A DNA stretch of 64,000 nucleotides from Acidilobaceae archaeon (GTDB lineage Archaea; Thermoproteota; Thermoprotei_A; Sulfolobales; Acidilobaceae). The position numbers and the translations under genes are program-made. The notes beneath the pieces are model-generated. The model had not been told where the DNA came from and made no database searches. It saw only the letters and a list, made by a program, of their open reading frames with translations. The stretch's first letter is position 1, and each line of letters begins with the position of its first letter. This document shows, piece by piece, positions 36,551 through 62,171 of this stretch. The stretch is taken from NCBI GenBank assembly GCA_038897215.1, contig JAWAWX010000001.1, positions 224,001 to 288,000 of the forward strand, in the 5' to 3' direction.

Positions 36551-37240
36551 ATGACTGATCGCCGCATAACAGACTCTATCAGCTGCAGCGAGGTCTACGA
36601 GGTGCTCTCGAAGAGCCTGGAGGTGAACCCAGAGGACTACACTGTCCTCGTAGCTCTAGCTGTAGGCGGGGGGTCTCCTTTCTCTGTCCTAGTGGGAGCA
36701 GTCTTGAGCCAGAATACTAGCGACAAGAACTCGATCAGAGCGCTGAAGAGTCTAGCGGAGAGAGTAGGGCTCTCCCCCGAGAAGATCCTGGAGGCCGGCT
36801 TGAGCGAGGTAGAGGAGGCGATCAAGACAGCGGGGCTCTGGAAGAGCAAGGCTAGAGCTATAGTTGAGCTAGCTAGACTGGTTTTGAGTAGAGGAGGAGA
36901 AGAGTACCTCCTCAGAGAAGACCCGCTAGTGTTGAGAGAAGAGCTTCTACGAGTGAGAGGAGTAGGCCCAAAGACCGTAGACGTCTTCCTCTCTGTAGCT
37001 CGCAGAGCTCCAGTGTTCCCAGTAGACACTCACGCCGCGCGCGTAGCTCTAAGGTGGGGTCTCGCTTCGAGTAGGAGGTACAGCGAGGTGTCTAGAGCTC
37101 TCCTCGAGTGCTTTGGCGCTGAGAGGAGCGAGGAAGCACACAGGCTAGTCATAGCTCTGGGGAGAGCGTACTGTAGAGCTAGGAGGCCTAGGTGTAAAGA
37201 GTGCCCTCTGAGAGCACACTGCCCCAGCTCAGAGGCCTAG
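36551..37240 (+). CDS. nth: Endonuclease III
   Basis: LSQNT, HhH GVGPKT, VDTH and 4Fe-4S motif CRARRPRCKECPLRAHC. Confidence 0.9.
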   Translation: MTDRRITDSISCSEVYEVLSKSLEVNPEDYTVLVALAVGGGSPFSVLVGAVLSQNTSDKNSIRALKSLAERVGLSPEKILEAGLSEVEEAIKTAGLWKSKARAIVELARLVLSRGGEEYLLREDPLVLREELLRVRGVGPKTVDVFLSVARRAPVFPVDTHAARVALRWGLASSRRYSEVSRALLECFGAERSEEAHRLVIALGRAYCRARRPRCKECPLRAHCPSSEA

Positions 37241-53200: not shown

Positions 53201-54904
53201 TCAGCCAGAGAGCCTCTCGGCTAGACCCCTCCCGGGCATCGCTCTGTCGGGCCAGAGTTCGACGAAGAACCTTATCGGGTCCCTCTTCGTCATCACTATC
53301 GCTTTCCTCCCCTCCAATATCGTGCAGTACTCTTCTCCTCTATTCAGCTTGATGTCGAACGAGTGCTCTACGAGTCCAACTTCTCGACCTATTGAGGAGA
53401 TGAACCCGAAGGAGCCCGACCCGACGGCGAAGAGCCGCCCGCTCATCCGGTCCTCGCTATAGCCTCCTCTCTCGACCCAGTGCTCAGCTCTAGCTAGGCC
53501 AAGCCAGGCTCTACCACGATCCCCTGCTATGTAGTAGGGACCGTGGGGTTCTACGACACCTACCCCGTACGTTACTGTCGCGGTTATCGAAACACCTACT
53601 CCTGGTAGGGTTCCTGCATATACTTGATAGAATATGGTTCTACCGCCTGCGACGTTTTTAGGCCCCCAGTCTCTCAAGATTTGGCCAGTCTGGTCTGAGA
53701 GCCAGTGAGTCGAGGTCTCGAAGAGCCTCGGGTAGTGGTGCACGATTTTGCAGATATGCCCGGATAGCGTGCAGCACCTCACACTGTATCCTATAGCAGC
53801 GTGTTTAGTGTAGACAAACCAAGCCGGGTGCGACAGAGCGCCTACCTGATATCCGCTGAAATAGTATTCAGAGTAGACGAATTGAATCCCGATGAGGCAA
53901 TTGTCGTATATATACACGGGGCCTTTGACTTTATCGCATACCGTGGAGGGGCATTCGTTCGCAGAGCCTTTGACTTTACTGCACACCGTGACATGGCTCC
54001 TGATCCAGCCGATGTAGCCTATGAGGGAGGGCTCTCGAGGACTAAAGTCTACGGAGAAGTGAGACACTCCGGTCCTCGAGATGGTCTTGCTCTCTTCTAG
54101 CAACCTCGTCCACTCTAGCACCGCTCTTAGAACACGTTTTGAGTTGTGGGATGTGAGGCTCTCGACGACTATGACTCCCGGCGGGTCTATCGAGTAGACC
54201 ACCATGTCGGCTGTGAGGACAGCTGGGTGAAGCCTCGGCTTCTTCAGCTCTCCTCTCTCCTCCCTCTCTATCGGCTGATTTGGGTCGAGAGGTACGGGCG
54301 GGTAGACTCCAGCGTTCTCTAAGGCCTCGAGCACGAGAACGTGTGGAGTGATGTCCGCTCTTCTCGGGAAGCCGTTCAGCAAGGCTATAGCGCACCCTCT
54401 GCAAGAGTCCACGAGTCTCGAGAACAGCCTAGAGTACTCTGAGGCATTCTCTAGCACTTCGTCGACGTGAGCCACTACTAGGGCTCGCTCTAGAGCCTCC
54501 GCCTCGAGATCGAGAGGTCTGGGAGCTAGCCCCACTCTATTGAATATGATTCTATGGTATGAAGGTAGCTCGCCGACATAGTATACCGGGACTCCCGTTC
54601 TCTCGAGGAGCTCTCTCGAGCTCTCGTCCTCAGGGATGATTTCACACGACCACGCGTCAACACAGTGCCACACCGACAGAGCATAGTAAAGGGCTTTGGC
54701 GGCTCCGGCGAGCGCGATGGCTATCGGCAGGATGACTAGAGCGATTACTAGCGCGATTATTGCGGCGATTATCGCGATGGCGGCCAAGGAGGTCGCTCGA
54801 CGGCTCGCCCTGCGCTTCACAGCTCGCCCCTCAAGCCCGATCCCTGCTTTGAAATCCTTTAAGGCTAGCGATGCAACGACCGTGCCAGCCTCGCTGAGCA
54901 GCAC
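53201..54904 (-). CDS. Membrane-anchored or secreted hypothetical protein
   Basis: Basic n-region KRRASRRA plus a long hydrophobic helix; Cys/aromatic-rich C-terminal half. Confidence 0.65.
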   Translation of the reverse strand: MLLSEAGTVVASLALKDFKAGIGLEGRAVKRRASRRATSLAAIAIIAAIIALVIALVILPIAIALAGAAKALYYALSVWHCVDAWSCEIIPEDESSRELLERTGVPVYYVGELPSYHRIIFNRVGLAPRPLDLEAEALERALVVAHVDEVLENASEYSRLFSRLVDSCRGCAIALLNGFPRRADITPHVLVLEALENAGVYPPVPLDPNQPIEREERGELKKPRLHPAVLTADMVVYSIDPPGVIVVESLTSHNSKRVLRAVLEWTRLLEESKTISRTGVSHFSVDFSPREPSLIGYIGWIRSHVTVCSKVKGSANECPSTVCDKVKGPVYIYDNCLIGIQFVYSEYYFSGYQVGALSHPAWFVYTKHAAIGYSVRCCTLSGHICKIVHHYPRLFETSTHWLSDQTGQILRDWGPKNVAGGRTIFYQVYAGTLPGVGVSITATVTYGVGVVEPHGPYYIAGDRGRAWLGLARAEHWVERGGYSEDRMSGRLFAVGSGSFGFISSIGREVGLVEHSFDIKLNRGEEYCTILEGRKAIVMTKRDPIRFFVELWPDRAMPGRGLAERLSG

Positions 54905-55150
54905 TGAGAGACCCGCAGACCGTAGAGCTGCAGCGAAGTTGTGGACCGCGGGCTCGCAGAGCGTAGCGAGGAGCTAACAGCTACGAGGAGGCGCGGCGCG
55001 ATGCATGCGGCGCGTTAAGCCGTAGCTTCCGCAATCCCGCGGGGGCTACGCGCTGGCTCTCGAGGGAGCAGTGAGAAGCGGAGCCCTCCAGTCTCCTCGA
55101 ATCCCGCGTCTTCGAGCATTGGCTCTCTGCGAGCAATATAGCTTCTCGGC

Positions 55151-55828
55151 GTGCGAGCGTCTGGTAGCGGGTCATGGCGATTGCTCGACGCCGCTAGAGA
55201 ACTCGGGCTAGCGCTGTGTAGAGACTTCAAGCCGGAGGCGTTGAGAGAGCTGGAGGGCTCTAGGAGGACTAAGAGGGGGGTCCACTGCGCGGACTTGTTG
55301 AAGCTGGCCGCCAGAGTCTTGCGCGAGCACGGAGAAGGCGGCTTGTGCGCGGTCGCGCTAGCTCTCTACCTCGAGAGAGCCCGCTTGCTAGTAGACTGCG
55401 CTATGAGGAAGGCTATAGAGCGAGAGCCGGGAGAGGTCGTGGCTAGACCGAGCGAGCCCCCCGGCGCGGCCAGGCTCTCCTCCTCTCTCGTGGAGTGCGT
55501 CGAGGAAGAGGTCTCTGCGATCAACGTGGTCAGGCTGCTAGACCCCTGCGAGAGGATCCAGGCGGTCTCCTTCATCAAGAGCGTGTCGAGGAGGAGCGTT
55601 GCGAGAAGAGCGTCGGGGAGGCTCGCCGCTCTGCTAGAAGAGTGCTCCCCCATCTGCTTGAGCGAGCAGGAAAGAGCTACGCTGAGCACCGCTAGAGCCA
55701 GGCTAGCCGAGGAGGCGGAGAGAGTGCTCGAAGCCATGAGGAGGAGTAGCATCGATGTGGCTAGAGCTCTCTGCAGAGCGGGGCTCGAGAGAGAGAACAG
55801 GGTCTTCTGCGAGACAGTGGGGGAGTAA
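55151..55828 (+). CDS. Cys-rich helical hypothetical protein
   Basis: 225-aa ORF with host-like codon usage; no recognised motif. Confidence 0.5.
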   Translation: MRASGSGSWRLLDAARELGLALCRDFKPEALRELEGSRRTKRGVHCADLLKLAARVLREHGEGGLCAVALALYLERARLLVDCAMRKAIEREPGEVVARPSEPPGAARLSSSLVECVEEEVSAINVVRLLDPCERIQAVSFIKSVSRRSVARRASGRLAALLEECSPICLSEQERATLSTARARLAEEAERVLEAMRRSSIDVARALCRAGLERENRVFCETVGE

Positions 55829-55877
55829 GAAACCGGGGAAAGAGAGCAACTGGGGGAGGAGCTTAGGCTAGAGCCGT

Positions 55878-56582
55878 CTACTTGGGGAGAGTCTTCTTGG
55901 AGGCTATCAGCTGCTTTGCCTCCTCTACGTCTGCCTTATCTACTTTCTCGTCGTAGCAGAACCACCAGTCGAAGCACTTGAACTTCTTGACTCTCTCCTC
56001 GGCCTCCTGGACTGTCGAGGCTGGGGGCACTATCACGTTCTCGCCCACGATCTCGTTCTCGGGCCAGTTGGCGGGGATCGCTCTGCCCAGCTTGTCGCTC
56101 ACCTGGAGAGCCTTCACCATCCTCAGTATCTCGTTTATGTTCCTGCCGAGCTCTAGCGGGTAGTAGAGTATCGCTCTGATCACTCCGTTGGCGTCGACTA
56201 TGAAGACCGCTCTCACGGTCTTAGTCCCGCTCTGAGCGTGGAGAAGACCCAGAGTCTGGGAGACTTTGCCAGCGGGGTCGGCGATGATCGGGAACGGTAG
56301 CTTGACGTTGAACGTGTTCTTTATCCACTCCTCCCACTTGATGTGAGAGAACGTCTGGTCGACGCTGAGCCCAATCAGCTCGGTGTTCAGCTTCTTGAAC
56401 TCCTCGTAGTGCAAAGCGAAGGAGACGAACTCAGTGGTGCAGACGGGGGTGAAGTCAGCTGGGTGAGTGAACAGCACGAACCACTTGCCAGCATAGTCGT
56501 CAGGCAGGACTTTAACGCCGTGAGTAGTCTCTACTACCATCTGAGGGAACTTCTCCCCAATACTGGGAACACTTATGGGCAT
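55878..56582 (-). CDS. Peroxiredoxin (archaeal Prx6-type)
   Basis: [18 protein letters not shown] and CFDWWFC motifs. Confidence 0.95.
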
Positions 56583-56750
56583 GCCTCACACACCCCTAGC
56601 ATCGAGAACACAGAAAGCCCCCGAGGGTAATAAAGCTTAACCAGTATTCTAGCTAGAAAGCTGTTCGAGAAGCTTATAGTAAAGCGTTTAGCTCTTAAGC
56701 CTACATAATGAGTCTAGACATAAGTTCTCCGGAAGCCTCTGACATTGATA

Positions 56751-57674
56751 CTATGAAGGTCTAGGGCGAGAAGCCACATCCTTACCTCTCAGCTTCTCGT
56801 TTATCTTCTCTCTCAGCTTTGTTCTCAGTCTTCTGGCGTCTTCTCTGACCGTTATCTCTACTCTCGTCTCCTCTTCTAGCCCTAGGTGGCTTAGTACCGT
56901 CTTCTTCTTCAGCCTCTTCTCTATGGCTTCTGCTAGCTCTAGGTCTATCTCGTAGCCCACGCAGTTTCTGCCGAGTCTGCTGGCTACAGCGCACGTCGTT
57001 CCCGTCCCTAGGAACGGGTCTAGTACTGTCTCTCCTGCGTAGCTGTAGAGCGTTATGAGCCTCTCTGCTAGCTCCTCTGGGAAGACCGCGGTGTACTTGC
57101 TCCACTCCTCTGATGGGAGCACGTTCGTTATGTCCCACACTGAGAGATACCACTTCTCCGACTGGAATCTCCTCAAGTCTACTCTGCTCTTCTCCCTCAC
57201 GTCTCTCGGCACAGAGGACCTATCGAACTCCCCGGGCTTCCTGAATACTACTATCTCCTCGTATATGTTGTCGGGGTAGAAGTACATGGGGTACGGGTTC
57301 TGGACGAGGACACCGCTCCTCCTGCTTATCCTGATGTAGCCCTCCGGCTTCCTCCACACGATCTTCTCCTGGTACTCGAAGCCAACCTCGTAGACCATGA
57401 TGTGGATGAGGTCGGCCACGATCGGGTAGAGCCTGCCTCCGACTCTGACGTCCTGAGTCACGAAGCACGCAACCCTGCCGTCAGCGAGAACCCTGAAGAC
57501 CTCCCCTCCAACCCTTCTGAGGAGACCCAGGTAGTCGTCGTAGCTGGGGAACAAGTCCGGGAAGTCGAAGGGAGCGTTGTAGTACGGAGGAGAGGTCACA
57601 ACCAGGTGGACGCTACCGTCTCCCAGCTCCCTCATGCTCTCAGAGCTACCGAATACCACCTTAACTGAGACCAT
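56751..57674 (-). CDS. Beta-class N4-cytosine/N6-adenine DNA methyltransferase
   Basis: VTSPPY motif IV at the N-terminus, then FPEEL and DPFLGTGTT motif I toward the C-terminus. Confidence 0.92.
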   Translation of the reverse strand: MVSVKVVFGSSESMRELGDGSVHLVVTSPPYYNAPFDFPDLFPSYDDYLGLLRRVGGEVFRVLADGRVACFVTQDVRVGGRLYPIVADLIHIMVYEVGFEYQEKIVWRKPEGYIRISRRSGVLVQNPYPMYFYPDNIYEEIVVFRKPGEFDRSSVPRDVREKSRVDLRRFQSEKWYLSVWDITNVLPSEEWSKYTAVFPEELAERLITLYSYAGETVLDPFLGTGTTCAVASRLGRNCVGYEIDLELAEAIEKRLKKKTVLSHLGLEEETRVEITVREDARRLRTKLREKINEKLRGKDVASRPRPS

Positions 57675-57700
57675 CTAAGCCACCCCCAGTATTTTTTACA

Positions 57701-58100
57701 TCACTTAGTAAAGATTTTATGTACATTTTTATCTATCCCCGCAGACCGTTCTATCGATAGATCTTCTAACATCACGTAGTGCAGAGCTACCAACGATTAA
57801 GAAGTGCTAGGGGAAACTTCTACTATGCGTGATTGCATTTTTACCGGGTTATCCCTTTATAATAAACCATTAGATATCCGAGAGACTGCTAGAGTTTCAG
57901 CAGTAAAGTTATTACAGTCATATTCATTAATTTCGCTTGAATAAGTGATATCTTCAACGTTTCAGACTTCATTTATCAACCATACAAGTTCACCTGCATC
58001 TCTTAATCTCACACTCTACTCCCGCAACTGCTTTTGGTGTGTTGTTTAAATTCCGCTATCGCTATCAAATCCTTTACAATGCCCGTCTAAGGTCTCATAT
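57701..58100 (-). pseudogene. AT-rich possible gene remnant upstream of the methyltransferase
   Basis: 104-codon frame 58012-57701 with three internal stops, preceded in another frame by KDLIAIAEFK; weak. Confidence 0.3.
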
Positions 58101-58186
58101 CTCATAAGTCGCAAAGGGTTGAAGAAAGCTTAGAGATGCTTATAGGCTCTAAGCTAGGTTTTAGATAGCTTGACTGCAGTTATGGT

Positions 58187-59086
58187 GTGAGCATCGTGCC
58201 GAAGGTAGATGTTCCAAACAGGCTCTCACTTAGCGATAAACGAAAGCTCTTAGAGAGGCTTGAGTACATTGGATTGTCGAACTTTACTCACTATATGAAC
58301 CAGAGATTGCTAAATGTCTTGGATAACAAGCATCTTCGGCACAGAGAGTTTTTGTCACGTTATCTGTTATTAGTAGCCGCGTTGGACCAGCAAGCGGATT
58401 CAGATAGCGCGAGAAAAACAGTGGTCAGTCTTTATCTAAGATACGGGGCGGACCTCTTTCTAAATCCTCATCAATATGTTGGAAATCTTTACGAAGTTGT
58501 AGAGTTAGCGGCTAGTCTCTACAGACCTCGCACAAGAGTTTTAAGGCTAAAAAACAACGCCGCCTTGCTTCTGAGGATAGGCGGCTTCTTGCTGGCTCTC
58601 GTTAATATCACAGAAAGATATGGGGGATTACTTAACTATCTAAGCTTGGCAACGAGTCCGCGAGGGCTACTCGATTTGATATTAAAAGACTTGCTACTAT
58701 CTGGTCTTCTCTACGAAAAAGCGGCTAGGATGTATGTAGGATGGGTTTCACATCCTAAGCTATGGATAAACATATCTAACGGTAAGTGGAAGCCTTCCGA
58801 GGTACCTATGGCCGTGAATGGACACGTGTGCAAAGTATTAGCGAGAACGGGATTTTTATCGAGCGCAATGGTTGAGGACGTGAAGACCTATATTGTTGAA
58901 GCTGAAAACGAGAGAAAGAACATCGAGAAAGAGATAGACTTAGCCTACCCGGAAGGAGATCGCTTATTCATAGATTTCGGTGCGTTCTATATAGGGATTA
59001 CATATTGTTACGAGACAAACCCGAGATGTAGTCAATGTCCTATTTCTCACCTTTGTAAAAAGAATATCGTTTTTAGGGCTTACTGA
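58187..59086 (+). CDS. Divergent HhH-GPD superfamily protein with 4Fe-4S (FCL) motif
   Basis: LDQQAD (like EndoIII LSQxT), EKAARMY HhH-like Lys, AVNGHVCKV (like VDTHV.R), CYETNPRCSQCPISHLC; AT-rich. Confidence 0.75.
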   Translation: MSIVPKVDVPNRLSLSDKRKLLERLEYIGLSNFTHYMNQRLLNVLDNKHLRHREFLSRYLLLVAALDQQADSDSARKTVVSLYLRYGADLFLNPHQYVGNLYEVVELAASLYRPRTRVLRLKNNAALLLRIGGFLLALVNITERYGGLLNYLSLATSPRGLLDLILKDLLLSGLLYEKAARMYVGWVSHPKLWINISNGKWKPSEVPMAVNGHVCKVLARTGFLSSAMVEDVKTYIVEAENERKNIEKEIDLAYPEGDRLFIDFGAFYIGITYCYETNPRCSQCPISHLCKKNIVFRAY

Positions 59087-59223
59087 TGCGCTATATTATG
59101 CAAGCCTATGGATATAGTTCAAGGGGGAACATCATGCCAGGTGATGTGTATTCAAGCTGAGCGCGCTGAGTGTCTGTGTGTGCGCACGCTCGAGATTTTC
59201 GGTTTTTTGGCTGTTGTTGCTGT

Positions 59224-59733
59224 CTAGCTCTTGCCTTTTAGGCACTTCATCATCGTCATGAATGCTTTGAGTGCTGCTGCCATCTCGGGGCTCCTCATTA
59301 TCTTTATGAGCTCCAGTAGCCCTAGGCCTTTCTCCGTCTTGGCCGCCTCGGCTGCAGCTGCTTCCGTGCATCTTGGTATCGTTTCCGCTGCCTTGAGTAG
59401 GGCTTCGTGGTTGAGCTGTGAGAGCATGTATACTAGCATCATCGTGTTCCCCAGGGTCTTCATTAGCTCCTGTCTGACTGCAGCGCTGAATGTCTCGTCT
59501 GCTGTCTCTAGTAGCCCTAGTAGCGCTGCCGTGGTCCCGCTTTCTTTAAGTGCTCTCGCTAGCTCTATCATGCCAGCTATCGAGTCCGCGTTCTCGGAGA
59601 GCTCTCTGAGCAGTAGCGCCACCTTCTTCAGGTCGACTGTCCTCAGCACCTCCTCTATCTCTCTCAACTCCTCGTCGCTAAGAGACTCGAGTAGAGAGAG
59701 GAGAGCGCTCGCCCTGCTCTTCTTCTCGGCCAC
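59224..59733 (-). CDS. DUF1641-like protein
   Basis: Helical protein with C-terminal GLLELIKIMRSPEM motif, downstream of the SQR-like gene. Confidence 0.75.
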   Translation of the reverse strand: MAEKKSRASALLSLLESLSDEELREIEEVLRTVDLKKVALLLRELSENADSIAGMIELARALKESGTTAALLGLLETADETFSAAVRQELMKTLGNTMMLVYMLSQLNHEALLKAAETIPRCTEAAAAEAAKTEKGLGLLELIKIMRSPEMAAALKAFMTMMKCLKGKS

Positions 59734-59745
59734 CGCGTCTCACCT

Positions 59746-60912
59746 CTAGAACCATCTCGAGAGCCAGAACTTCTCGAAGGCGTACTTTAGAGCTCTGAAG
59801 ACCTTCATCCCGCCTAGTATGACGCAGTCCGGGTACTCTCCCATCGCTATCCTCTTGGTGAAGTCGCAGTAGACCGCTGCACCCACGTAGCCCATGTCCA
59901 TGACGCAGACCCCGCTCTTGTTGTAGTGCGCGCCCATGTAGACTCCCTTGATCTCATCCACGATCCTGCTGGCAACGTACTCTGCCTGGAAGTGAGCGAA
60001 GACACCGGCCATGCCTAGATTCAGGCTGGGAGCTACCACGTCGCCGACCCCGTAGACGTTATCGTACTTGGGGGCTCTCAGAGAGACCTTGTCTACCCTC
60101 ATGTAGCCCCATATGCTCTCATCTCCTAGCTCGGACTCAGCGACAGGCTTCGGGGGGCTGTGAGGAGGCACTACTATAGCCAGGTCGTACTTTAGCCTCT
60201 CTCCGCTTCGAGACACCAGGATGCCGTCTTGGAAGCTGTCTACCTCTACGCCTCCAGCGTAGCCTACCCCGTACTGGTCTAGGAACTTCTTGAAGGCGTT
60301 GACGAGCATGGAGCCGAAGGGGTCCATTGGCTCCTTCCAGAAGTGAGCTACAGTGATGTCAGCGTTCACTCCCCGCTGCTCAGCCAGATACTTGACCATG
60401 AAGGCTACCTCGAATGGAGCCGGGGGGCACTTGTAGGGCCACGAGACCGGGGTTACTACGACGGAGCCTCCCTTGAAGCCCGCTAGTAGCTTCCTGCACT
60501 CGAGAGCCCCCTCTAGAGTCCAGGGGGTGCAGACTCTCCTCGTGTCCCCGGGGATCTTCTCGGGCTCCGGGATGCTTCCAAGAGCTACCACTAGGTAGTC
60601 GTAGTCTAGCCTCCTCGAGCTCGTCTGAACGGAGTGCTCCTCGGGCTTTATGCTCTCAACCTCCTCGACTAGGACTCTCACGCCCTTCCTCTCGAGTAGT
60701 CTGAGAGGTCTCCTGATATCGTCGGGCTCTCTCTGCCCCATCATAACCCAAGGCTGGCTCGGCTGGAATACGTGGTAGCTACTCTTATCCACTAGGGTTA
60801 TCTCTGCTTCTCCTCTAAGCTTGCTCGCCAAGATGTTAGCCGCCACGACTCCTCCAGCGCCTCCCCCGAGAATCAATACCTTCTTCCCGCCAGCCACAGC
60901 GTAGCGCACCAC
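59746..60912 (-). CDS. sqr: Sulfide:quinone oxidoreductase-like flavoprotein (type III-like)
   Basis: GGGAGG, YDYLVVALG, CPPAPFE, VYGVGD and CVMDMG motifs. Confidence 0.8.
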   Translation of the reverse strand: MVRYAVAGGKKVLILGGGAGGVVAANILASKLRGEAEITLVDKSSYHVFQPSQPWVMMGQREPDDIRRPLRLLERKGVRVLVEEVESIKPEEHSVQTSSRRLDYDYLVVALGSIPEPEKIPGDTRRVCTPWTLEGALECRKLLAGFKGGSVVVTPVSWPYKCPPAPFEVAFMVKYLAEQRGVNADITVAHFWKEPMDPFGSMLVNAFKKFLDQYGVGYAGGVEVDSFQDGILVSRSGERLKYDLAIVVPPHSPPKPVAESELGDESIWGYMRVDKVSLRAPKYDNVYGVGDVVAPSLNLGMAGVFAHFQAEYVASRIVDEIKGVYMGAHYNKSGVCVMDMGYVGAAVYCDFTKRIAMGEYPDCVILGGMKVFRALKYAFEKFWLSRWF

Positions 60913-60938
60913 TACGCTATTGCCGAGTCGAGGATAAT

Positions 60939-60955
60939 ATTTTACAGTATAAAAT
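60939..60955. promoter_or_regulatory. AT-rich palindrome in the sqr promoter
   Basis: ATTTTA-CAGTA-TAAAAT about 27-43 bp upstream of the annotated start. Confidence 0.35.
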
Positions 60956-61097
60956 TAGCGTTTTTAGGAGGAAGCTGAGGCTAGGAGAGCAATGCGAGCT
61001 TGCATCACGAAAAGCCAGCTCTAGAGCCTCTCCAGGTTAGGGTTATAGGGGGGAGCTGGGCTAGCTAGCTCTCCGGAGAGAGAGGGGCTCGGCTGGG

Positions 61098-61775
61098 TTG
61101 AGGATTAGGCTTGCTGTCTTCGACGTGGACGGAGTGCTCGTAGACGTTGAGAGTAGCTGGAGAGCTGTCCACGAGTACTTCGGGGTCTACGAGAAGGCTA
61201 GAGAGGCGGCTAGGCTCTTCTCTGAGAGCAGGCTGCCCTACGTTAAGTGGATGGAGCTAGATACAAGGCTCTGGGTTGAGGCTAGAGGCGGTAGGCTTCA
61301 CAAGAGCGAGCTCCTAGAGGCTTTCTCGCGTCTACGCGTAGACCCAGAGGCGAGGCCTCTCTTCGACTGGCTGAGAGCGAGGGGAGTCAAGACTGCTCTC
61401 GTCAGCGGGGGGATCGACCTGTGGGTAGAGAGAGTAGCTGAGGCTGTTGGAGCGGACTACTGGCTAGCTAACAAGCTCTCATTCGACAAAGACGGCTACC
61501 TGGTCCCCGGAGGGGTCCCTGTTGTTGGCGTCTGGAAGGATGAAGCTGTCAGGAGGATAGCCTCGCACCTTGGAGTAGACCTCTCTCAGGTCATGTTTGT
61601 CGGGGATAGCGAGTGGGACGCTCCAGCCATGAGGATAGTAGGCTACCCCGTCGGCTACGGTCCGCGAGCTAGAGAGGCTTTGAGAGGCGTAGCGAGATAC
61701 TTCGTAGACAGGCTCTCCCAGATAAGGGAGCTAGTCGAAGCCATAGAGAGGGGGGAGAGCCCGCTTCTCGAGTAG
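61098..61775 (+). CDS. HAD-IB phosphatase (phosphoserine phosphatase-like)
   Basis: FDVDGVL, VSGG, K and GDSEWD motifs. Confidence 0.88.
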   Translation: MRIRLAVFDVDGVLVDVESSWRAVHEYFGVYEKAREAARLFSESRLPYVKWMELDTRLWVEARGGRLHKSELLEAFSRLRVDPEARPLFDWLRARGVKTALVSGGIDLWVERVAEAVGADYWLANKLSFDKDGYLVPGGVPVVGVWKDEAVRRIASHLGVDLSQVMFVGDSEWDAPAMRIVGYPVGYGPRAREALRGVARYFVDRLSQIRELVEAIERGESPLLE

Positions 61776-61784
61776 AGCCCGGCG

Positions 61785-62171
61785 CTAGAGCTCTACGGGG
61801 AGCTCTTCTAGAACGCCGTCTCTTAGAGTCCACGCTTTGACCTCGCTAGGGCAGGCTATCACCCAGGGGATCGGCCATCTCTTCATCCCCTCTACGTCTA
61901 GAGGGCTGGGCTCGGGAGGGCAGGAGGAGTGAGTGTGGAAGAGAGCCACGACCTCGAGGCCGTAGGCTTCAGCCGCTAGGTGTGCTTGAACAACATGCCA
62001 TGGGTTAGCCTCGAAGAGGCTCCCCGACTTCAGCTCGTTGTCTGCGCGGAAGAGAGCCCGGCACTCTACAGCGTCTTCTCTCCTAGAGCCTAGGAGGAGC
62101 CCTACGGCCTCGACCCCTCCTCTCGCCATCAGCTTGAGTGTCTTCTCCAACCCCCCTATCTTAACCCTCAA
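61785..62171 (-). CDS. JAMM/MPN+ (M67) metalloprotease
   Basis: EAVGLL plus HTHSSCPPEPSPLD. Confidence 0.88.
   Translation of the reverse strand: MRVKIGGLEKTLKLMARGGVEAVGLLLGSRREDAVECRALFRADNELKSGSLFEANPWHVVQAHLAAEAYGLEVVALFHTHSSCPPEPSPLDVEGMKRWPIPWVIACPSEVKAWTLRDGVLEELPVEL

Follow-up and report, generated by a model that had tools for sequence, protein, structure and literature searches.

A methylase-linked protein of the EndoIII fold as a candidate base-excision restriction partner for GGCC in an Acidilobaceae archaeon

Introduction

Only one protein fold, the half-pipe (HALFPIPE) of the PabI family, is known to carry out restriction by base excision; in this family R.PabI excises adenine at GTAC and is paired with an N6-methyladenine (m6A) methylase, M.PabI. 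Full-text literature searches for 'restriction glycosylase' returned the PabI family only, with no restriction enzyme of the helix-hairpin-helix (HhH) or EndoIII type, and a 2023 review mentions none (PMC10273834). The present analysis concerns a stretch of 64,000 nucleotides from an Acidilobaceae archaeon (assembly GCA_038897215.1, contig JAWAWX010000001.1, positions 224,001 to 288,000), referred to as a whole as the window, and within it a two-gene island formed by a DNA amino-methyltransferase (the methylase) and by a divergent protein, the product of open reading frame (ORF) 58187-59086(+), which is called GL throughout. Its modelled structure and its gene linkage predict that GL is a methylase-linked partner of the base-excision type built on a fold other than the half-pipe. 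The reading favoured here, to which we would give an even chance, is that GL is a methylation-blocked restriction partner for GGCC, acting by base excision and cleavage at the resulting apurinic/apyrimidinic (AP) site, and recruited in place of the nuclease PhoI. What counts for restriction is the linkage to the methylase, the self-contained and mobile nature of the cassette, the alternation with PhoI, a decay like that of restriction genes, an invariant Schiff-base lysine and a predicted symmetric dimer. An earlier interpretation of this DNA from its letters alone (the sequence-only reading) had proposed a restriction system or, alternatively, a modification and repair cassette.

Several described systems resemble GL in part. 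R.PabI is, like GL, a methylase-linked restriction partner of hyperthermophiles, and GL would share with it the damage of unmethylated palindromes by base excision and AP-lyase action, as a homodimer; unlike the half-pipe of R.PabI, the GL model is all-helical, of the HhH-GPD type with a [4Fe-4S] cluster, and its partner is a putative GGCC methylase that would make N4-methylcytosine (m4C). EndoIII (Nth), as seen in structure 2abk and in the window's own copy, has the same LxQQ-type motif, HhH lysine, VxGH motif and Cx6Cx2Cx5C cluster ligands. Unlike EndoIII, GL has about 90 extra residues, which form a helix at the N-terminus and insertions near 95-150 and 186-210, carries Asn at the position of D138, is a predicted homodimer with an obligatory methylase linkage, and is rare and mobile whereas EndoIII is a housekeeping gene. 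Mig.MthI (1kea), from the MthTI system of plasmid pFV1, is likewise a glycosylase of the HhH and Fe-S fold found in the context of a GGCC restriction-modification (R-M) system in a thermophilic archaeon. The methylase that partners Mig makes 5-methylcytosine (m5C), and Mig repairs T:G mismatches. Mig.MthI differs from GL in its m5C rather than m4C partner and in the presence of the catalytic Asp. It also has Tyr126 where GL has the HhH lysine, Lys178 (PMC9945173). The type II enzymes R.PhoI and R.SuaI (GG^CC) have the same methylase family as GL, presumably the same site, and the same genomic slot, but they are unrelated proteins, PhoI being a conventional restriction enzyme of the phosphodiesterase type. 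Dcm-Vsr resembles the GL cassette in that a methylase is tightly linked to, and often overlaps, a repair-type gene that persists without a nuclease; Vsr, however, is a nicking endonuclease for the T:G mispairs that arise from m5C, and no equivalent lesion logic applies to m4C. Finally, DME and ROS1 are bifunctional glycosylase/lyases with HhH and Fe-S cluster that are tied, as GL would be, to the methylation state of cytosine, but they are eukaryotic and far larger, excise the methylated base and lack any linkage to a methylase.

Fold of GL

The AlphaFold model of GL, built on 36 homologues, has a predicted local distance difference test (pLDDT) value of 96, and its best Foldseek matches are all EndoIII, MutY, MIG or ROS1. 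Superposed with VIA-align on EndoIII of Escherichia coli (2abk), it gives a Z-score of 16.7 with a root-mean-square deviation of 2.5 A over 208 of 211 residues; the scores for MIG (1kea) and ROS1 are 14.8 and 14.9. As modelled, GL is an all-helical protein of the HhH-GPD fold (the EndoIII/MutY superfamily) with an Fe-S cluster loop. Sequence comparison is far less telling: there is no match to Pfam HhH-GPD (PF00730), the score against EndIII_4Fe-2S (PF10576) is 19.1 bits with a cut-off of 20.5, and in searches of the Protein Data Bank (PDB), Pfam, NCBIfam and PADLOC every match was below threshold and lay at the C-terminus, on the EndoIII/MutY Fe-S loop. Homologue alignment and the Atlas record suggest that the true start is probably the GTG at 58196, which would give a protein of 296 amino acids.

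The landmarks of EndoIII on which the sequence-only reading had relied are present. Aligned with the window's EndoIII by hhalign, the LDQQ motif of GL (residues 66-69) falls on LSQN and Lys178 on the HhH lysine, the nucleophile of bifunctional glycosylase/AP-lyases of the Nth type; this lysine is invariant in 97 of 97 family members, and the four cluster cysteines, which fall on the cluster ligands of the window's EndoIII, are kept in 93-96 of them. Other residues invariant across these 97 intact members are E54, Q68, Q69, G212, H213, K216, R220, E230 and D263. The earlier reading did not list the residue at position 211, which is taken up below with the points that bear on catalysis. It was also correct that the window already has a normal EndoIII, the canonical copy being encoded elsewhere in it (Table 1).

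The partner methylase

The methylase ORF matches Pfam N6_N4_Mtase (PF01555) at 2.7e-47 and PADLOC MTase_II at 1e-82. The order of its motifs, with SPPY at residue 28 (57582-57593) ahead of FLGTGTT at residue 221 (FxGxG; 56994-57014), is that of the beta class, in agreement with what had been read from the sequence. The nearest solved structure is TTHA0409 (2zie; 1.6e-33). Because the protein is 72% identical over 300 amino acids to M.PhoI of Pyrococcus horikoshii, it can be named a GGCC m4C enzyme of the M.PhoI/M.SuaI type. M.PhoI and M.SuaI have been described as beta-class GGCC N4-methylases of hyperthermophiles; the former is tabulated as GGCC m4C from single-molecule real-time (SMRT) data, and the latter modifies the inner cytosine, GGm4CC (PMC11033074, PMC3425538). 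By orthology, the target of the methylase in the window would be GGCC and its product m4C.

Linkage of GL to the methylase

GL relatives were collected as a set of 86 loci from assemblies and metagenomes, cited below, where needed, by labels beginning with L. A methylase orthologous to that of the window adjoins GL in 70 of the 86 (E-values 1e-93 to 1e-160). The 23 loci whose flanks reach 2.2 kb or more on either side of GL all have it, so that no solitary GL occurs among these, and each of the 16 loci without a methylase has less than 1.13 kb of flank upstream of GL. All four arrangements of the two genes occur, in Archaea and Bacteria. The linkage is thus effectively obligatory, and the recurrence of the methylase, which the sequence-only reading had named as a test of its proposal, was found. 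Divergence of the two proteins is correlated (r = 0.77), GL evolving faster than the methylase and at roughly the rate of PhoI relative to the methylase.

Three clades can be distinguished in the family tree: clade A is bacterial, clade B belongs to Bathyarchaeia, Nitrososphaeria and Jordarchaeia, and clade C, which holds the window, to hot-spring Thermoproteota. Across the roughly 60 loci of clades A and B, every other flanking gene family is limited to four loci at most, so that these cassettes hide no nuclease. The module of these clades is GL and methylase, with the addition in clade B of a protein of 52-72 amino acids; in clade A operons the two genes overlap. The family is sparsely distributed: of 401 sampled genomes of the phylum, three carry GL, and no relative was found in IMG/VR viral contigs.

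Two small proteins accompany some of the cassettes. One has a 52-amino-acid core with an invariant MPM-Y start and two predicted helices, and is encoded between the GL and methylase genes, both in the operons of clade B and in some members of the window's subclade (e.g. L063:6991-7146(+), L007:4773-4988(-) and about 16 other loci). In the model of the core (pLDDT 73) the N-terminus is extended and two helices are formed; none of its Foldseek matches is significant, and the weak ones include ribbon-helix-helix proteins. The modelled topology is compatible with a regulator of the ribbon-helix-helix type, which is a guess. The other, of about 110 amino acids, is found in one subclade always immediately upstream of the methylase, the start of which it often overlaps (e.g. 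L030:296-634(+), L006:5977-6300(+) and 24 other loci), and is absent from the window. Neither has a sequence match in Pfam or the PDB.

Alternation with the PhoI nuclease

Some clade C loci have, next to GL and the methylase, a recurrent protein of about 336 amino acids without a Pfam match. Its homologues, the P. horikoshii protein included, are named PhoI, and from these database names and what is established about PhoI we take it to be the conventional GG^CC restriction endonuclease PhoI. In P. horikoshii the PhoI gene is convergent to that of M.PhoI, with no GL nearby.

The partners of the methylase were counted in a methylase-anchored census of 80 species-representative genomes. GL is the partner in 36 loci (19 intact, 13 split or truncated, four at contig ends) and PhoI in 18 (10 intact, four degraded, four at contig ends). 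A single locus, in which GL is broken, has both and is included in both counts; 27 have neither. Since both partners occur together in only one of the 53 loci with either, GL and PhoI behave as alternative partners of the methylase. In 12 of the 13 loci with a degraded GL the methylase is intact. At the species level, GL occupies the position that PhoI has elsewhere and decays in a similar way. The hosts of GL in this census include Thermodesulfobacteriaceae, Saccharibacteria, Kryptonium, Nitrospirae, Dehalococcoidia and Bathyarchaeia. Two loci of the metagenome set, L050 and L051, have a split PhoI gene together with an intact GL and an intact methylase.

The sequence-only reading had found no recognisable intact endonuclease in the island. 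None, of the PhoI type or otherwise, was recognised there in this analysis either, and a PhoI profile search of the whole 1.16 Mb genome of the window (G000) gave no homologue.

A predicted homodimer

GL is predicted to form a homodimer with a score of 0.81, the best of three controls scoring 0.00; in calibration the mark was reached by 20 of 30 true homodimers and by one of 23 single chains. Agreement among the three runs extends to 98% of contacts or more, with a pLDDT of at least 91 for the partner. The predicted interface has two-fold symmetry, and residues 129, 132, 133 and 136 each contact themselves across it. Residues 95-144 and 169-176 would make it up, which comprise an insertion specific to the family, with a long helix at 123-145, and the start of the HhH; against EndoIII the stretch 95-176 is largely unaligned or gapped in hhalign. 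R120, G132 and G133 form the conserved core of this interface. Canonical HhH-GPD repair glycosylases act as monomers, and type II enzymes that cut palindromes act, as R.PabI does, as dimers. A dyad-symmetric dimer, if formed as modelled, would suit a palindromic site and would be atypical for an HhH repair glycosylase.

Proposed mechanism and competing explanations

In the favoured reading, the methylase would methylate N4 of the inner cytosine in GGCC, and a GL homodimer, by means of the family-specific insertion beside the HhH, would bind the same palindrome. One nucleotide per strand, in the simplest case the target cytosine of the methylase, would be flipped into an EndoIII-type pocket, where GL would remove the base and nick the strand by Schiff-base beta-elimination at Lys178, unless an N4-methyl group blocked recognition. 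Closely spaced nicks on both strands would then break foreign DNA. The substrate, the base excision, the sensitivity to methylation and the activity of the form with Asn at position 211 are features that we infer.

Several observations weigh against this reading. The catalytic Asp of the HhH-GPD superfamily is absent in this copy of GL, which has V-N211-G-H where the window's EndoIII has V-D-T-H (hhalign). Replacement of this Asp by Asn abolishes or strongly impairs the activity of MutY, AlkA and DME/ROS1, and several of the MutY structures among the matches of GL are D144N substrate traps. Across the family, only Asp (54/97) or Asn (43/97) is found at position 211. Clade A has Asp throughout, clade B has Asp except in L059, and Asn is nearly confined to clade C. 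The residue switches at least about seven times on the tree, mostly inside clade C, and differs between the near-identical L030 (Asn) and L040 (Asp). Judged from the alignment, the position apparently must be Asp or Asn, a carboxylate would not be required, and both forms seem to be under the same constraint.

With Asn in 43 members, this copy included, GL could instead be a protein that, at least in its Asn211 form, excises nothing and serves as a GGCC-directed binder or as an AP-lyase only. Its flipping pocket and Lys178 would then read the methylation state or process abasic sites, and it would be, for instance, a regulator or the weakened descendant of a restriction enzyme that originally had Asp. 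There is a precedent in the Y126K mutant of MIG, in which the HhH lysine alone gives AP-lyase without glycosylase activity (PMC9945173), and two contigs with a frameshifted methylase (L029 and L031) carry a GL of the Asn type. We regard this explanation as improbable: the restriction of position 211 to two residues that interchange even between near-identical copies stands against it, as does the retention of the other invariant residues in both forms, which suggests that the Asp and Asn forms do the same job; it would, moreover, leave both the replacement of PhoI and the R-gene-like decay of GL unexplained.

A more speculative thought, which we consider a long shot, keeps restriction and makes it heat-timed, the inactive Asn211 form slowly deamidating to an active Asp at 80-95 C. 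Such a delay would give the methylase a head start in a new cell, which is the job of controller proteins elsewhere. No dipeptide deamidates more readily than Asn-Gly, and GL has V-N-G-H with an invariant Gly212. The occurrence of Asp and Asn only, their repeated interchange by one transition and the near confinement of Asn to hot-spring Thermoproteota would all fit.

The two contigs just mentioned also weigh against a restriction role. In each (L029:530-1428 and L031:5027-5926) a different one-nucleotide deletion interrupts the methylase while GL is intact; both are about 97% identical to L032, and the frameshifts may be assembly errors. If they are real, GL is not lethal without the methylase. 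To this may be added that, in the metagenome set, intact GL, intact PhoI and one methylase occur together in several clade C lineages, namely Thermogladius calderae (L006), L030/33/36, L023 and L034/44/46. Two restriction enzymes sharing one methylase would be unusual; a restriction enzyme, a methylase and a repair helper together are a known layout.

These last observations are what would be expected if GL were a repair helper in the manner of Mig or Vsr, that is, a sequence-context glycosylase/lyase for a lesion or mispair made at GGCC by the methylase. Candidate lesions are deamination products, off-target N3-methylation and misinsertion opposite m4C, and the cassette would consist of methylase and helper, with or without PhoI, as in dcm-vsr or the MthTI-Mig pair of pFV1. 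The overlap of the two genes in clade A recalls dcm/vsr, and Mig.MthI, one of the structural matches of GL, is itself a glycosylase of the HhH/Fe-S kind whose gene accompanies a GGCC R-M system. The partner of GL, however, is an m4C amino-methylase (PF01555) and not a C5 enzyme. Since m4C does not deaminate to thymine, no dedicated helper is expected; this property was reportedly given by Grogan in 2003 as a reason for the use of m4C by thermophiles. Nor is the active site of the Mig type, Lys178 and Asn211 standing where MIG has Tyr126 and a catalytic Asp, and the sequences of GL and 1kea do not match meaningfully (E = 8.4). The near mutual exclusion of GL and PhoI in the census is likewise not what a helper would lead one to expect, and the roughly 60 nuclease-free cassettes, with their wholly variable flanks, would all have to be mobile units of an orphan methylase and its helper. 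A symmetric homodimer, finally, is not needed for repair of a single lesion. A helper role is therefore rather unlikely, though it is to be taken seriously: computation does not separate it from restriction, and it is on balance that restriction is favoured.

The presence of GL together with PhoI could also be explained by two complementary barriers, GL being, like DME/ROS1, a glycosylase that depends on modification, removing a foreign modified base and sparing the cell's own m4C. Its target might be, for instance, the m5C that phages or plasmids put on GGCC with methylases of the HaeIII type to escape PhoI or SuaI; m5C at GGCC blocks SuaI only partly (PMC3425538), and ROS1 is among the structural matches. 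Enzymes resembling type IV need no linked methylase, and yet the linkage of GL is obligatory; we think this explanation very improbable.

Two further results do not help the case for restriction. The predicted interface is not more conserved than the rest of GL (mean entropy 2.02 versus 1.72, p = 0.16). GGCC is the most under-represented tetramer of G000 (observed/expected ratio, O/E, 0.62), but it is equally avoided (0.635) in a 400 kb sample of G001, a genome of the same genus that lacks the cassette. Avoidance of GGCC as evidence of GL activity is thereby ruled out.

The proposal of the sequence-only reading, restriction system or repair cassette, is supported in part: the linkage to the methylase speaks for it, GL behaves as an alternative to PhoI, and Asn211, the co-occurrence with intact PhoI and the frameshifts in L029 and L031 weaken the first of its two options, restriction. 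Should GL restrict DNA that is unmethylated at GGCC, a housekeeping repair fold, that of EndoIII/MutY with its Fe-S cluster, would have been turned independently into a weapon. Many methylases of the M.PhoI type that are counted as orphans in Archaea and Bacteria would then belong to complete R-M systems, a thermostable enzyme able to tell N4-methylated from unmethylated cytosine would be at hand, and the family would offer a natural experiment on how replaceable the 'essential' Asp of HhH glycosylases is. A role of GL in repair would instead mean that m4C methylation carries a mutagenic cost not recognised before.

Genome context

The layout of the island and of its neighbours is given in Table 1. 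The cassette stretch has a GC content of 38-44% (GL alone 43%) in surroundings of 55-62%, and its two genes are divergently transcribed; the AT-rich character, the divergent orientation and the flanking genes had all been described correctly from the sequence. In G001 (C1:374000-384000) the peroxiredoxin gene is followed directly by a gene for a HAD hydrolase, as seen by blastn and tblastx with window positions 54000-62000. The insertion or deletion that separates the two genomes is about 4.4 kb long and mixes the low-GC cassette with the sulfur genes DUF1641 and SQR-like, which are of normal GC content. Methylase, GL and PhoI were not found among 40 relatives searched. It is about an even call whether the island is a self-contained, horizontally acquired two-gene module resembling an R-M system.

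The spacer between the two genes showed no conserved small ORF, and tblastx and blastn against all related loci and the whole genome gave no similarity. A decayed gene within it was considered and ruled out, tblastn with PhoI and with the accessory proteins of 110 and 52-72 amino acids being negative.

Table 1. Features of the island, of GL and of the surrounding window, with PhoI-family genes of related loci in the last row (positions there are those of the locus named).
Feature	Position	Strand	Remark
Methylase ORF, 307 aa	56751..57674	(-)	Beta-class amino-methyltransferase, M.PhoI orthologue; target by orthology probably GGCC, N4 of inner cytosine
Intergenic spacer, 512 nt, 38% GC	57675..58186	.	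Divergent; presumably both promoters within
GL ORF, 299 aa	58187..59086	(+)	Divergent EndoIII/MutY-fold HhH and [4Fe-4S] protein; candidate restriction partner of methylase
GL residues 95-176, family-specific insertion and HhH start	58469..58714	(+)	Predicted homodimer interface region
GL Lys178 codon	58718..58720	(+)	HhH lysine, aligned with Schiff-base nucleophile Lys120 of EndoIII
GL Asn211 codon AAT	58817..58819	(+)	Catalytic Asp position (EndoIII D138, MutY D138/D144), followed by invariant Gly212
GL cluster ligands C274, C281, C284, C290 (Cx6Cx2Cx5C)	59006..59056	(+)	Aligned to MutY/EndoIII cluster loops
Segment without counterpart in G001	~56670..61090	.	Methylase, GL, DUF1641, sqr; boundaries approximate
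Peroxiredoxin (prx) gene	55878-56582		One flank of island
DUF1641 gene	59224-59733		Other flank, GL side
Type III SQR-like gene (sqr)	59746-60912		Beyond DUF1641 on GL side
Reverse gyrase ORF, 1215 aa	32776-36423	(-)	Directly adjoins canonical EndoIII gene
Canonical EndoIII gene	36551-37240	(+)	Elsewhere in window
PhoI-family genes with GL and methylase	L030:1549-2559, L006:7230-8228, L050:4932-5936	(-)	

The reverse gyrase beside EndoIII marks the host as a hyperthermophile, and the public sequencing runs that contain this stretch are hot-spring metagenomes. None of these runs is recorded as RNA; in two metatranscriptomes from the study behind one of the DNA runs, no read matched the region within the roughly 3% of each that was covered, a sample too small to bear on expression. 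Two genes upstream of the peroxiredoxin gene lies a 567-amino-acid ORF (53201-54904, minus strand) without a Pfam or PADLOC match, in a stretch of lower GC content (52-57%). Elsewhere in G000, an ORF of about 335 amino acids (C1:486684-487688, plus strand; stop-to-stop frame) matches the GL family profile weakly (8.5e-05) and, judging by this match, may be another protein of the HhH/Fe-S type. G000:C1 has two further N6_N4_Mtase loci, near 42 kb and near 787 kb. Among the under-represented tetramers of G000, GATC ranks second (O/E 0.63); in the 400 kb sample of G001 it is not avoided (1.03), which hints at a GATC-directed system specific to the G000 genome.

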